In this document: piece by piece, positions 55,751 to 62,556 of the stretch
Numbering within the stretch: the stretch's first letter is position 1
How the letters are laid out: each line of letters starts with the position of its first letter
NCBI GenBank assembly: GCA_045616425.1
Contig: JAZLGS010000025.1
Coordinates: 6,712 to 70,711 of the forward strand
DNA length: 64,000 bases
Origin: Treponema sp.
GTDB taxonomy: Bacteria; Spirochaetota; Spirochaetia; Treponematales; Treponemataceae
Direction: 5' to 3'
The notes under the pieces: model-generated
The model's database searches: none
Seen by the model: the letters and a program-made list of their open reading frames with translations, nothing else
Told to the model about the DNA's origin: nothing
Translations under genes and position numbers: made by a program

Positions 55751-57343
55751 ATGGGAACATATTTGAATCCGGATAATATAAATTTCAGAGATTATGTCAA
55801 TGATTTATTTATTGACAAAACAATGCTTTTAAGCATCTTGAATGAACGGTTAGATAAAACAAGCAGGAAATTCATATGCCTGAGCCGTCCGCGCCGTTTT
55901 GGAAAAACCGTTGCCGAAAATATGATAGCGGCCTACTATTCCAAGGGTGCAGATTCAAAAAAATTGTTCTCAAAATTCAAGATTTCCAAAACAGATGATT
56001 TTAAAAAACACCTGAATAAGTTCAACGTCATTAAAATTGACCTGAATGGAATATTCGCTGAATGGAAATCCAGCATCGGCAGAAACAAACCAGAAACTGC
56101 AATTCAATATCTGACAAACCTCGTCTGCCGGGAATTCAAAGAATATTTTTCTGATATAGATTTTAACGAAGAATTCTCGCTGGCAGGCTTCATCCTGAAA
56201 GTTTATGTCCAGAAAAAAGAAACATTCATAGTTATAATTGATGAATATGACGTTCTTGTCCGTGAACAGGTTCCAGAATCAGAATTCCAGCAATATCTGG
56301 ATTTTCTAAATTCACTTTTTAAAAATGAGTCATTAAAACCTGCCATTTCCCTTGCATACCTTACGGGAATCCTTCCTATAGTCCGTGACAAAATCCAATC
56401 AAAACTGAACACTTTTGATGAAATCACAATGCTGCAGACTGGAAGATTTGCAGAATTCACAGGCTTTACAACTGAGGAAGTCCAGTCGCTTTGCGAAAAC
56501 TACGGTTGCGATTTTAAAGAATGCAAAAGCTGGTACAACGGATACAAAGTCGGAAAATTTGAAATATATAACCCTCAGTCAGTTACAAAATCTGTCATCA
56601 ATGAAGGGTTCAGGTCTTATTGGAGTGCAACTTCAAGTTATGAAGTAATTGCCGACAAGCTCAACATGAATTTTGACGGAATCAGGGATGCTGTTACAGC
56701 CATGCTTTCTGGTGAAACAATTGATGTCAACGTTGGAAAATATAAAAATACCATGAAAGATTTTGACAGCCGGGATGATGTCTTTACATTTTTGATTCAT
56801 CTTGGATATCTTGCATATGATTGCGAAAAAGGTCAATGCTACATTCCAAACCGTGAAATTTATGAGGAATGGAAAAATGCCATTGAAAATAATCCAGAAT
56901 ATGAACTGACTAACAAAATCATAAAAGCCTCAAAAGAACTCTTAAAACAGACAATTGCCGGTAACGGAAATGCAGTTGCCGCTGCCCTTGATGAAAGTCA
57001 CATACACGTAACTTCAAACCGCAGCTACAATAACGAAGATTCTTTTCAAAGTGCCATTTATCTTGCATATATTTACGCAATAAACAATTACACAATTGTC
57101 AAGGAAATGACAACCGGCAAAGGATTTGCAGATATTGTCTACATTCCATTAAAGAAAAATGCACCGGCAATGATTATTGAACTAAAACGCAACAGTTCCA
57201 CAGAATCGGCCTTAGAACAGATAAAAGAAAAGAAATACCAGGCCTCGCTTGAACACTACTCGGGAGACCTTCTGTTCGTCGGTATAAATTATGATGAACA
57301 TACAAAACTCCACCAATGCAAGATTGAAAGGTTTGTTAAGTAG
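55751..57343 (+). CDS. AAA-ATPase-like protein with C-terminal PD-(D/E)XK nuclease domain
   Basis: RPRRFGKT, IIDEYD, GKGFADIVY...IIELK...ALEQIKEKKY. Confidence 0.9.
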   Translation: MGTYLNPDNINFRDYVNDLFIDKTMLLSILNERLDKTSRKFICLSRPRRFGKTVAENMIAAYYSKGADSKKLFSKFKISKTDDFKKHLNKFNVIKIDLNGIFAEWKSSIGRNKPETAIQYLTNLVCREFKEYFSDIDFNEEFSLAGFILKVYVQKKETFIVIIDEYDVLVREQVPESEFQQYLDFLNSLFKNESLKPAISLAYLTGILPIVRDKIQSKLNTFDEITMLQTGRFAEFTGFTTEEVQSLCENYGCDFKECKSWYNGYKVGKFEIYNPQSVTKSVINEGFRSYWSATSSYEVIADKLNMNFDGIRDAVTAMLSGETIDVNVGKYKNTMKDFDSRDDVFTFLIHLGYLAYDCEKGQCYIPNREIYEEWKNAIENNPEYELTNKIIKASKELLKQTIAGNGNAVAAALDESHIHVTSNRSYNNEDSFQSAIYLAYIYAINNYTIVKEMTTGKGFADIVYIPLKKNAPAMIIELKRNSSTESALEQIKEKKYQASLEHYSGDLLFVGINYDEHTKLHQCKIERFVK

Positions 57344-57553
57344 TGTCCTTATTTCAAACGGGATTCACTGACTAAATGTATAGCAAGATTCTCTCTAAGC
57401 AGCTGTGCTGCGCTATCTAGGCGGTGTTTTATGGAAGCATGCAGACAAGTTACACATATCAGGATTCACCGTTAAAAAGTCTTTTTATAACTTTTTTCAA
57501 TGATTCCGGGATAAGACATTTTACAAATTCTTTAAGTACAAATGCCTTTCTTT

Positions 57554-58408
57554 TCAACTTTTCTGCAAATACCCCCCCCCGTATTTTGAACATCGAATCA
57601 GGTAAGGAATAAAAGTCCTATATATCTCTATATTATAAAATTTTTGTTCTTTTGCACCGAACCTTGACTTGTATTCACAATTTCCCCATAAAAAATTAAA
57701 TACATGAATGTCATTAGTAATTGCATATTCAATCGTCTTTAACAAAATCAAATTTCCAATGTTAAACTGACCATATGAATTACTATGCGCTATGACATGA
57801 AGATTAAGTGCGCCATTGTAAACACTGGCAATTGTACCGGCAACAATTTTTGAATCAATTTCCAGATAATTAATTACACAATTTTCATGGAGCCGTTTGA
57901 AAAGAAGACCGGAATCTACGCCGCTTTCAAAACCTTTTCCTAAACACCGTTCCTGATTTAATGCAACAATATTTTCAAATACGGCTTTATTTATATGGGA
58001 TTTTTCGCACACATATTTGCTTTTAATATCCTGTGATAACAAAAACTTATCAAGCTGGCGCTGATACCATTTCAAATGCTGCCTCGTTTTTTTCCCTAAT
58101 GAAGCCATATATTCATCCAGCGAATCAGGAAGGTATAAACAAAAATTACTGTCAACAGGGTGTGGAACAAATAAGGCTTTTTTATATGTACAAGGATTAC
58201 TTCTGGTTATCGAATCCAAAACTATTTTTTTACAATCATATTTTTGAAAAATATAATCCAAAATCTGCTGATTAAAATCATCTGTATTTTGCAATCGGGA
58301 AAGCAAAACAAATGAATTACCGGCAGTTTTATACAAATACTTATGGTTATTAAAAGAAAAAGAATCAGCTCCTGGATTGAAAGAATCAGTTTGATAAATT
58401 GTCTCCAT
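57554..58408 (-). CDS. GNAT (Acetyltransf_6/FemAB-like) protein of the glycan locus; C-terminus shifted at a G9 tract
   Basis: LPDSLDEYMASLGKKTR...FNFLWGNCEYKSRFGA; G9 at 57572-57580. Confidence 0.8.
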   Translation of the reverse strand: METIYQTDSFNPGADSFSFNNHKYLYKTAGNSFVLLSRLQNTDDFNQQILDYIFQKYDCKKIVLDSITRSNPCTYKKALFVPHPVDSNFCLYLPDSLDEYMASLGKKTRQHLKWYQRQLDKFLLSQDIKSKYVCEKSHINKAVFENIVALNQERCLGKGFESGVDSGLLFKRLHENCVINYLEIDSKIVAGTIASVYNGALNLHVIAHSNSYGQFNIGNLILLKTIEYAITNDIHVFNFLWGNCEYKSRFGAKEQKFYNIEIYRTFIPYLIRCSKYGGGYLQKS

Positions 58409-59367: not shown

Positions 59368-60594
59368 TTATTCAAAAAGTGAAATGTTTGCAATTGAACC
59401 ATTTATCTGAAATGATGAAGTAATTTCCATATTATAGGAATTAACAATCCAACGGGTATTTTTTAATGATGCCCCTAATGAAAGAATGTATTTTCCCGGA
59501 AGAAAAGTTTTCTTTCTTAATGGTGCATAAACAGTATTAAGACCTGTTTTATAGCCATAGTTATCAGGCATATTAATTCGAAGAACCATTTCAGTATCCC
59601 GATAGACAGAAATCCAGAAATCAACATTACTGTCTGGTTTTTCGATATCAAACATAAGTTTCAATCTGTATTCTTTTTCGTAATCCAAAGCATCGGTAAC
59701 AACAGTATCATTATCATCCACTATACAAAATTCTACAGGAGAAAAATTTTCATCTGTAAACGAACCGTCATTTTTCCAGATAGTCGTTACATATCCCCCC
59801 CCATTTTCATCTGTCCCCTGATACCAGCTGACGCTCTTATCTATATTATCATCCTGCCGTATGATATGCCCTTTTTCAAGGATAATACCACGATTACAAA
59901 GTCTTTTTACCTGACTCATATTATGGCTTACAAAAAGGACCGTTCTTCCTTCCCCCGTACTCAAGTCGTTCATTTTACCAAGAGCCTTTTTCTGGAATGC
60001 TGCATCCCCTACTGCAAGAACTTCATCTGCAATAAGAATTTCGCTGTCCAAATGAGCGGCAACGGCAAAAGCAAGACGTACATACATACCGCTGGAATAA
60101 CGTTTTACAGGAGTATCAATATGTTTTTCAATTTCGCTGAATGCAATAATCTCGTCTAATTTTCTGGAAACTTCATGGCGTTTCATACCAAGAATGGCAC
60201 CGTTAAGATAGATATTCTCACGGCCTGTAAGTTCAGCATGGAAACCTGTACCTACTTCGAGAAGGCTGGCAATACGACCTTTGATTTTTACACTTCCTTC
60301 AGTAGGCGCAGTAATACGACTTAAAATCTTTAAAAGTGTAGACTTTCCTGCACCATTTTTCCCAAGAATACCTACTCGATCACCTTTTCTTATTTCAAAA
60401 TCAAGATTTTCAAGAGCCCAAAAACCGTCTAAACCACTATCATATTTATGACTTCCAATTGTACTGTGAGGATCCTGTTTTCCATGTTTCAATGCCATCC
60501 AAGTCTGTATATCACGGAATAAAGTACCATTATTAATTACACCAAGACGATAATATTTTGAAAGATGTTCTGCTTTTATTAAAGTTTCACTCAT
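59368..60594 (-). CDS. Polysaccharide ABC exporter ATPase (Wzt-like) with C-terminal domain
   Basis: GKNGAGKS, YSSGMYVRLAF, DEVLAVGD, plus about 140 aa C-terminal extension. Confidence 0.92.
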   Translation of the reverse strand: MSETLIKAEHLSKYYRLGVINNGTLFRDIQTWMALKHGKQDPHSTIGSHKYDSGLDGFWALENLDFEIRKGDRVGILGKNGAGKSTLLKILSRITAPTEGSVKIKGRIASLLEVGTGFHAELTGRENIYLNGAILGMKRHEVSRKLDEIIAFSEIEKHIDTPVKRYSSGMYVRLAFAVAAHLDSEILIADEVLAVGDAAFQKKALGKMNDLSTGEGRTVLFVSHNMSQVKRLCNRGIILEKGHIIRQDDNIDKSVSWYQGTDENGGGYVTTIWKNDGSFTDENFSPVEFCIVDDNDTVVTDALDYEKEYRLKLMFDIEKPDSNVDFWISVYRDTEMVLRINMPDNYGYKTGLNTVYAPLRKKTFLPGKYILSLGASLKNTRWIVNSYNMEITSSFQINGSIANISLFE

Positions 60595-60642
60595 ACAGAT
60601 AAAATACCATAAGTAGATAAAAATGTCGATAAACAGGCAATC

Positions 60643-62556
60643 TCAGTAAAGATGTGGATAAATTCTGAAAACAAAATGTATAACCGTAAAAAATGCCAAT
60701 ATAAGCGACAGATTGAATCCATCTGAAAACCCGACAACTATTTTTCCGGTACGAAGTTTTTCCGAAGCAATAAAATATAATGGAACAACAGGTAAGAAAT
60801 ATCGAGGCTGAATCCCCCACATAACAGGAGAATTGAAATTTGTCCAGGTCATACCGACTACAACAATAAAAGCCGTAACTACTACAGCTATAATAATTGA
60901 AGGAAGATAAAACTCCGGAACATCGTTCTTCTTTAGACAAAAAAGGACAATAAGCAGGAAAAAGAAAAGATATTCAAATGATTTGGCCATTCTTCCACTT
61001 GCTGCATTGTAAAAAAAGAAATCCCCTATCTGATCATAAGGAAGTTCCAAAATAGTATTCAGCTGGATAAGAACAGTATTTCCCGGGTGCTGAATAAGGT
61101 CCGCTATAGAATAAGCAACCTCGTGTGTATTCTGTCCTGTCCCCCTGGACTGCAAGAAAGCAATATTCGGATTCAAAGAACACAAATACCCCCCCAGATA
61201 CAGAACAGCCAATACAAAAACTGCTGAAATCACAGGAATTTTAACTTTCTTGTTAGCAAAGAAATATGTAAGAATAAAATAAAATGCCAACGGAAAATAA
61301 ACAGCCTTGATAGGTAAGATAAAAACACAAAGAAAAGTGAGGATTAAAACATCTTTTAAAGTCTTCTTTTCTGCATAGTAAAAATAAATAGAAAAATTTA
61401 TCAATGCAAAAGCAACAGGAAGTAAAAGAGCATCATAAGAATATGATCCCAGCTCCAAAAGGATTACCGGCCAGCTCGATAGAATCAAAATTATGTTGTT
61501 CTTCAAAAACTTGTTTTTTTTGCAAGAAAAATAAATGAGAAAAATCCCAATTAGAAAATTAACAACAGCACCAACATAAAACAAAGCAAATTGATTCAAT
61601 CTTAGAAGACGTGCAACAGTGATTGAAAGGCAGGAAAAAATAAATGCACGTTGTGGTTTCATAACCTTTGCGGCAAAAGAGTCCACAAGATGTATATCAG
61701 GAGACTTAAAAGCATTCTTTGCAAAGTGTGCAGCATAATCAAAAAAGCTGCCAAACCAGCACCAGTAACTTTCATAATACTGGTCAGGATAATACCCCGG
61801 AAGAAGCTCCAGGTCACATGCACGCTTTAAGAGATTTCCGGTAACTTGAGAATCACCATAGCCCATCAACATATTTGACATATTGTAGGCACTGTCAAAA
61901 TGAATCAAGTCATTGTATTGGGAACACGGTGGCCGGGAAAATATCATAAACAGTCCGAGTACAAGTGAAAATATTAAGAACTTATTCTCCCGTTTCCATT
62001 TGGTACTTTTTACAAGAAGCAGGCAGAACACCCCCAATGCAATTACATACGCTACAGAAATTGCAAACTGTAACCATATAAGAGCACCGCCTTGCTTGTT
62101 TACAATTGAACCGTCCTTGTTAAATTTTACAAGAGCTTTATCAGACTGAATAGAATAATGTAGGGTTTTATTTTTTATGTTAAGACCGACTTTTGGAAGA
62201 TGAAGAATAAGAAAAGTTTCATTGTTAAAAAAAACAGTTTCTGCTTTCGTTATAACTTTAGGCACTTCTTTTAATTCCACAAAAAAATCTTCTGGAGTAA
62301 GTTCTTCGCCGTTTATGGATTCATATACAAAAGTAATTTTTTTTGGATGTCGTGTTACAAGTTTGATTTCGCCATCTTTTGTTGAATCAACAGACATAAA
62401 AAGGGCAGAATCAGAATTATTATAATACAACCTTACGTTGTCAAATTTCTCTACAAGCCGAACAAATGTATAAACAGAAAGGATTACAAAGGTAATAGTT
62501 AAAAATATGGTCCATCGTCTCTGAAAGAACTGGCAGATATTATTTTTTACAAGCAT
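60643..62556 (-). CDS. Polytopic membrane protein, probable DUF2142/GT-C glycosyltransferase
   Basis: PP....D..HF..AY.MS loop and late QPRYFLP motif; about 11-12 TMs. Confidence 0.7.
   Translation of the reverse strand: MLVKNNICQFFQRRWTIFLTITFVILSVYTFVRLVEKFDNVRLYYNNSDSALFMSVDSTKDGEIKLVTRHPKKITFVYESINGEELTPEDFFVELKEVPKVITKAETVFFNNETFLILHLPKVGLNIKNKTLHYSIQSDKALVKFNKDGSIVNKQGGALIWLQFAISVAYVIALGVFCLLLVKSTKWKRENKFLIFSLVLGLFMIFSRPPCSQYNDLIHFDSAYNMSNMLMGYGDSQVTGNLLKRACDLELLPGYYPDQYYESYWCWFGSFFDYAAHFAKNAFKSPDIHLVDSFAAKVMKPQRAFIFSCLSITVARLLRLNQFALFYVGAVVNFLIGIFLIYFSCKKNKFLKNNIILILSSWPVILLELGSYSYDALLLPVAFALINFSIYFYYAEKKTLKDVLILTFLCVFILPIKAVYFPLAFYFILTYFFANKKVKIPVISAVFVLAVLYLGGYLCSLNPNIAFLQSRGTGQNTHEVAYSIADLIQHPGNTVLIQLNTILELPYDQIGDFFFYNAASGRMAKSFEYLFFFLLIVLFCLKKNDVPEFYLPSIIIAVVVTAFIVVVGMTWTNFNSPVMWGIQPRYFLPVVPLYFIASEKLRTGKIVVGFSDGFNLSLILAFFTVIHFVFRIYPHLY

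Follow-up and report, generated by a model that had tools for sequence, protein, structure and literature searches.

The last gene of a surface-glycan operon in a gut Treponema has the reading frame of its 3' end set by a run of nine G, which we take to be a slipped-strand (contingency) tract; this is the best explanation of the evidence, though an unproven one, and we give it a probability of about 0.55. The run lies at 57572-57580 on the minus strand of the window (the whole stretch of DNA that was analysed, 64,000 nucleotides), inside a gene for a FemX-like transferase (57554-58408, minus strand). Changes in its length would toggle a C-terminal extension of this enzyme.

Run length and reading frame

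As assembled, the run is read as three glycine codons (277-279), the stop follows 5 codons on and the product is 284 aa long (P0001). Beyond it lies an out-of-frame C-terminal tail of 37 codons and a stop (P0002; 57459-57572, minus strand), which is joined to the gene by a run of either ten or seven G. The resulting products, computed in silico, are 316 and 315 aa long, respectively, both carrying the 37-residue tail and terminating at 57459-57461, while runs of eight and eleven G lead to products of 291 and 292 aa whose last 12 residues are unrelated to that tail. The gain or loss of one unit thus amounts to a choice among alternative protein products (284 aa with nine G, 316 aa with ten, 292 aa with eleven), and this computation agrees exactly with the original prediction, according to which the ORF ends soon after a run of nine G and ten or seven G extend it to the stop at 57459-57461. 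The nine-G run removes a conserved helical tail, and the layout is of the type familiar from slippage switches; the length change itself is putative. No terminator or promoter was found in a scan of positions 57250-57700, and the 44-aa ORF of the tail was looked for, and not found, as a protein called in its own right.

A FemX-like enzyme with the run at the edge of its fold

The enzyme matches Acetyltransf_6 (PF13480) with 35.6 bits against a curated cut-off of 22 (E 1.2e-8). NCBIfam gave no match, and a sequence search of the PDB returned no true match to any chain. AlphaFold models are of high confidence for both the 284-aa form (pLDDT 94.4) and the homolog P0006 (pLDDT 95.6); the latter was used as the query for the structure search, and the model of the 284-aa form has the same order of elements. 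FemX and FemA structures match the P0006 model with Z 19-20 and rmsd 3.2-3.5 over 257-265 aligned residues (for FemX 6snr, Z 19.9 and rmsd 3.2 over 257 residues), aminoacyl-phosphatidylglycerol synthases (L-PGS/MprF) follow at Z about 16, and new aminoacyl-tRNA-dependent peptide synthases are also close. As modelled, the enzyme is a two-lobed FemX-like tandem-GNAT transferase, not a single GNAT. The name "GNAT acetyltransferase", under which the gene had first been described, is therefore too narrow, since the fold resembles FemX and the aminoacyl-phosphatidylglycerol synthases. The donor could be an acyl-CoA (as in GNAT enzymes) or an aminoacyl-tRNA (as in Fem enzymes).

The two-lobed fold is the one found in FemX, FemA and the C-domain of MprF, at a sequence identity of 7-14%. 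Two differences stand out. The family of the window enzyme has a helix of about 30 residues past the FemX C-terminus, which is specific to the family and absent from the FemX-type fold, and the gene sits in a glycan operon and not in a peptidoglycan or lipid pathway.

In the P0006 model the last strand (residues 256-266) is followed by a single continuous helix (269-311). The solved structures of FemX, FemA and MprF align up to about residue 280 of this model, which corresponds to about residue 277 of the window enzyme, the first glycine of the run. By these models, the run is predicted to sit at the seam where the FemX-equivalent fold gives way to a helical extension of about 30 residues that is specific to the family. 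The model of the nine-G product retains every strand together with a helix at 266-275 (the first 10 residues of the last helix), and its disorder is confined to residues 276-284. The short form is thus predicted to keep the whole catalytic fold while the run toggles the C-terminal extension, and the proposal that the tail is switched and the catalytic domain spared gains in this way from both the end point of the FemX alignments and the confident model of the 284-aa form. Glycines are absent at the run position from the other close homologs, which makes the run resemble an insertion specific to this lineage, at a site that would tolerate it.

The out-of-frame tail as coding sequence

The original prediction held the longer form to be the true protein, and three independent lines of evidence back it. 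Tail length in the family was taken as the number of residues after query position 265, in the 149 representatives that align as far as the core's end; its median is 48 aa (quartiles 39-55.5), to be compared with 51 for the ten-G form and 19 for the nine-G form. Homologs do not routinely end at the short position: only 2/149 have a tail of 19 residues or fewer, and 6/149 are long fusions.

Codon usage gives the second line. Log-likelihoods were computed over segments of 37 codons from the codon tables of the other twelve genes of the operon. Read in the ten-G frame, the tail scores 8.58, which is the 35th percentile of in-frame operon segments (9.94 +/- 3.97) and is reached by 0/738 out-of-frame segments (-14.7 +/- 7.4). 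The other two frames of the tail score -16.5 and -8.4, and both contain stops. By this signature, the out-of-frame tail is genuine coding sequence.

Finally, a family profile built without the window sequence and without its closest relative (P0004) gives 258.9 bits to the ten-G form, 255.1 to the nine-G form and 254.3 to the core alone. The gain of 3.8 bits of the ten-G over the nine-G form is mostly a matter of composition and length; shuffled tails score 256.5 +/- 0.97 bits on the same profile, and 2.6% of them match the ten-G score. Pairwise alignments of the tail with most homologs likewise do not rise above shuffles, position-specific likeness being weak, as is expected of fast-evolving basic helices. 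Because of the family tail lengths, the codon usage of the tail and the profile scores, the long form is well supported as the complete protein.

A closer likeness is found next door. The GT2-like glycosyltransferase encoded just upstream (P0003; 58415-59362, minus strand, 315 aa) ends in about 20 residues with a basic tail pattern, K.LIP.SLK, that is common to its C-terminus and the out-of-frame tail. The local alignment of the two ends scores 40, where shuffled tails reach 23.5 +/- 4.5 (z 3.65, p 0.005), so that the resemblance to the adjacent glycosyltransferase, which had been noticed from the outset, is real beyond composition. Recent DNA duplication is not the source of this likeness. 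Basic, hydrophobic C-terminal tails are also present on two other transferases of the operon.

Relatives and the age of the short frame

The closest relative of the enzyme, P0004 (87% identical, found on two ENA contigs), is equally long and, past its three glycines, likewise continues in the short frame. All three assemblies with a close version of the gene (the window and the two P0004 contigs) carry the short frame, no full-length close relative is present among 5.8 billion clustered proteins, and scans of genome and metagenome contigs yielded relatives at 26-43% identity only. The enzyme occurs in 3/337 other species of the genus (338 same-genus genomes), as two deacetylase fusions at 38-40% identity and one distant match; among the genomes of 101 relatives, matches were limited to the window's own genome and one distant hit from the same order.

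Such a distribution could reflect a young fixed frameshift: after the loss of one G or the gain of two, the lineage would make the tail-less enzyme only, without meaningful switching, and the tail would be a recent relic that has yet to decay. The uniformly short close versions and the lack of a long close relative in the protein databases are what this would produce. It seems unlikely all the same, as the short state is common to a protein only 87% identical, and over that divergence a neutral tail would be expected to pick up stops and to lose its codon signature, whereas it scores like in-frame sequence and has no stop in 37 codons. Moreover, a run of nine G is mutationally unstable in Treponema (PMC7864442). 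The retention of coding quality in the tail, in spite of a short frame common to both sequences, agrees with recurrent switching and is hard to square with a frameshift fixed long ago.

The same combination might also be produced by programmed recoding, with nine G as the conserved genotype and slippage of RNA polymerase, or -1 slippage of the ribosome, yielding short and long proteins at a set ratio. Slippage-type recoding operates in Thermus dnaX, in IS elements and in Shigella mxiE, nine identical bases make a slippery template, and the out-of-frame arrangement has been kept in the only close relative while the tail retains its coding quality. This conservation, however, involves two distinct sequences only, and the region downstream of the run contains no frameshift-stimulating RNA structure (MFE -12.9 kcal/mol, z -0.36 against shuffles). 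Known bacterial transcriptional slippage sites are, furthermore, mostly runs of A or T, and we regard recoding as improbable here.

Poly-G runs of 7-11 G vary within isolates of T. pallidum in vivo, often with one dominant length (PMC7864442), and we infer a comparable change of length in vivo for the present run. Taken together, the indirect evidence favours an unstable run with nine G as its mode.

Several relatives from other Treponema and from metagenomes (L003, L004, L021 and L022; proteins P0010, P0012 and P0015) have the FemX-like domain fused to a polysaccharide deacetylase in proteins of about 600 aa. The domain pairing hints at a possible step in which an amino sugar is de-N-acetylated and then re-acylated; a deacetylase was not among the genes seen in the operon of the window.

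G runs in the operon and the genome

The enzyme gene closes a long minus-strand glycan operon whose GC content of 31-36% is below that of the genome (41%). Starting at the contig's far end, the operon encodes nucleotide-sugar enzymes, then GT2, DXD-type and GT4 transferases, a GT2/DUF2304/DUF2142 trio and lastly the Wzt-like ABC ATPase, the GT2-like protein and the FemX-like enzyme. No ORF recognisable as an ABC-2 (Wzm-type) permease lies beside the Wzt-like ATPase (59368-60940); a 117-aa ORF at 60587-60940, which matches nothing in Pfam, overlaps the DUF2142 gene at its end.

Two further G runs occur on the minus strand of the operon, a G8 (59795-59802) in frame at codon 265 of the Wzt-like ABC ATPase gene (59368-60594) and a G7 (61189-61195) in frame at codon 454 of the DUF2142 membrane protein gene (60643-62556). 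All three runs of the operon (G9, G8 and G7) precede a tyrosine codon, in the peptides ENGGGY, LGGY and KYGGGY, and the motif NGGGY recurs in mid-protein in the homologs P0005, P0006 and P0011. Taking the window by itself, runs of eight or more G are not significantly enriched (3 matches against 1.22 expected, a number reached by 18/100 dinucleotide shuffles).

At the scale of the genome, a 2.95-Mb Treponema draft in 91 contigs (three FlaA genes score above the Pfam cut-off, against none in 14 control genomes), long runs are rare, yet more frequent than expected. Counts of G/C runs drop about 8-fold per base from length 5 to 7 (703, 95 and 12) and then level off (5, 3 and 1), so that 9 runs of at least 8 are observed in the 2.95 Mb where about 1.8 would be expected from the decay over lengths 5, 6 and 7. 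Two of these 9, plus a G7, are on the coding strand of the glycan operon, which thus holds, within 3.6 kb, three of the genome's 21 G/C runs of at least 7. The other long runs are mostly uninformative: one is at the end of a GGDEF-EAL gene, one just past the stop of RtcB, others are intergenic near clpX and near a BspA-type gene, and two lie in ORFs that lack a Pfam match. The last two (a G9 at 54423-54431 of contig C89 and a C8 at 25977-25984 of contig C17) lie 141 and 58 nt, respectively, from the start of stop-to-stop ORFs with 319 and 185 codons, and may be tracts like those of T. pallidum, in a promoter or at the 5' end of a gene. A G7 on contig C67 (at 13613) was considered as a frameshift and rejected, as it marks an ordinary overlap of two genes.

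A second gene of the genome is interrupted at a G run. The G7 at 21049-21055 of contig C79 splits an MBOAT O-acyltransferase gene (C79:19820-21324, equivalent to L026:1321-2825) into a 421-aa ORF with the MBOAT domain and a 99-aa ORF in another frame. The latter matches the C-terminal part of open frames of 491-535 aa in five genomes of the same genus, and the pieces would fuse upon the gain of one G or the loss of two.

Frame breaks at G runs may also arise from sequencing or assembly error, in which case the true run would have ten G and the FemX-like gene would simply be intact. Several sequencing platforms are prone to error at long G runs, the draft genome is in 91 contigs, and the break in the MBOAT gene, like that in the FemX-like gene, requires one additional G. 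Against this, P0004 is an independent, ENA-derived protein that has the same frame on two contigs. Frames break at 11/2490 (0.44%) long A/T homopolymers, no more often than at random positions (0.58%), and long ORFs read through several G7-G9 runs in frame (the G8 in the Wzt-like gene, the G7 in the DUF2142 gene and the G9 on contig C89). Systematic miscalling of homopolymers is thus unlikely, and we consider an artefact at this particular run improbable.

G runs elsewhere in the enzyme family

The homolog of Blautia wexlerae MSK.20.46 (NZ_JAAIMY010000030.1; L005:5697-6633) is split near codon 33 by a G9 of its own (L005:5792-5800). Its N-terminal piece of 35 codons has the conserved start of the family and ends just after the run, the remaining 277 aa being in another frame; the gene that follows encodes a polysaccharide deacetylase (PF01522). 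At the protein level, triple glycines in family representatives are found conspicuously often beside a protein end: P0008 starts at a triple glycine, P0110 stops 11 residues after one, P0029 stops 5 residues after a double glycine, and P0015 is also among the members resembling pieces that begin or end beside two or three glycines. These cases suggest that G-run frameshifts may have arisen at other positions of the enzyme in other lineages.

A more speculative possibility would be that nine G is a maintained genotype and not an "off" allele. A folded, tail-less form would then coexist with a smaller amount of full-length, tethered enzyme produced through slippage at the DNA or RNA level. The run would determine how much of the enzyme is soluble and how much is docked at the machinery, and would in this way grade the decoration of the glycan instead of switching it; the family would have acquired G runs independently at several positions in Treponema and Firmicutes. 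We think this quite doubtful.

A possible role for the tail

In the homologs P0005 and P0006 the tail has a strongly amphipathic character (muH 0.77-0.82, p<0.01). The window tail is moderately amphipathic (muH 0.52, p 0.2 against shuffles) and has a net charge of +6. Helices of this kind serve known enzymes as membrane attachments, an example being the C-terminal amphipathic helix of H. pylori FutA, a monotopic glycan enzyme at the inner membrane. PssG and PssI of Rhizobium are likewise soluble-fold glycosyltransferases kept at the inner membrane by C-terminal amphipathic helices, and C-terminally shortened PssG is less membrane-bound (PMC9961541). Like these tails, that of the window enzyme is basic and hydrophobic, is predicted to be helical, falls within the range of 30-60 residues and ends a polysaccharide-synthesis enzyme with a soluble fold, and by this analogy we infer that it may bind the membrane. 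It differs in being only moderately amphipathic and in its occurrence as an interdomain linker: in the deacetylase-fused relatives the same basic helix sits between the FemX-like and deacetylase domains. As it is internal in those proteins, membrane anchoring need not be its only role, and docking or tRNA binding are possible as well.

Returning to the reading that we prefer, a slipped-strand tract, the switch would work as follows. Nine G would be the modal or assembled state and give a folded, tail-less enzyme; the gain of one G or the loss of two would restore the full-length protein, whereas eight or eleven G would yield a third, short end. The FemX-like transferase would decorate the glycan made by an operon of the ABC-transporter type, with the basic helical extension (about 35-45 residues) most likely tethering or docking the enzyme at the membrane-bound assembly machinery. 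The tail-less form would probably be inactive or much less effective in vivo, and cells within the population would then differ in one decoration of the glycan.

Should the run vary, the consequence would be cell-by-cell diversity in a single decoration of a surface polysaccharide, with a bearing on phage and immune pressure in the gut. Its placement at the seam offers a natural pair of isoforms for probing the basic C-terminal helices of glycan-assembly enzymes. As to annotation, the gene is better recorded as encoding a product of 284 or 316 aa, depending on run length, of a FemX-like family than as a plain 284-aa GNAT acetyltransferase.

Comparison with known systems

Poly-G tracts of 7-11 G are known in surface-related genes of T. 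pallidum, which broadly belongs to the same genus (tprE/G/J/L, tp0126 and some 40 others; PMC7864442). Those tracts mostly affect promoters and transcription (PMC7864442), whereas the putative tract described here belongs to a gut commensal and lies within the 3' end of the coding region for a glycan enzyme. If it does vary, the poly-G switching of the syphilis agent would extend to the glycan operons of its commensal relatives.

Phase variation of glycan genes through poly-G/C runs within the genes themselves is well established in other bacteria, namely in Campylobacter (wlaN/cgtA and capsule modification genes), Neisseria (lgtA/C/D and pglA/pglI) and Haemophilus (oafA). As in the window gene, a homopolymer in a glycan transferase or acyltransferase gene sets the reading frame by its length; the outcome at such loci is a population heterogeneous in a single surface decoration. 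The tracts at these loci usually lie early or midway in the gene and abolish the enzyme, whereas the present run spares the predicted fold and would toggle a C-terminal extension, a placement at the seam of fold and tail that is mildly unusual.
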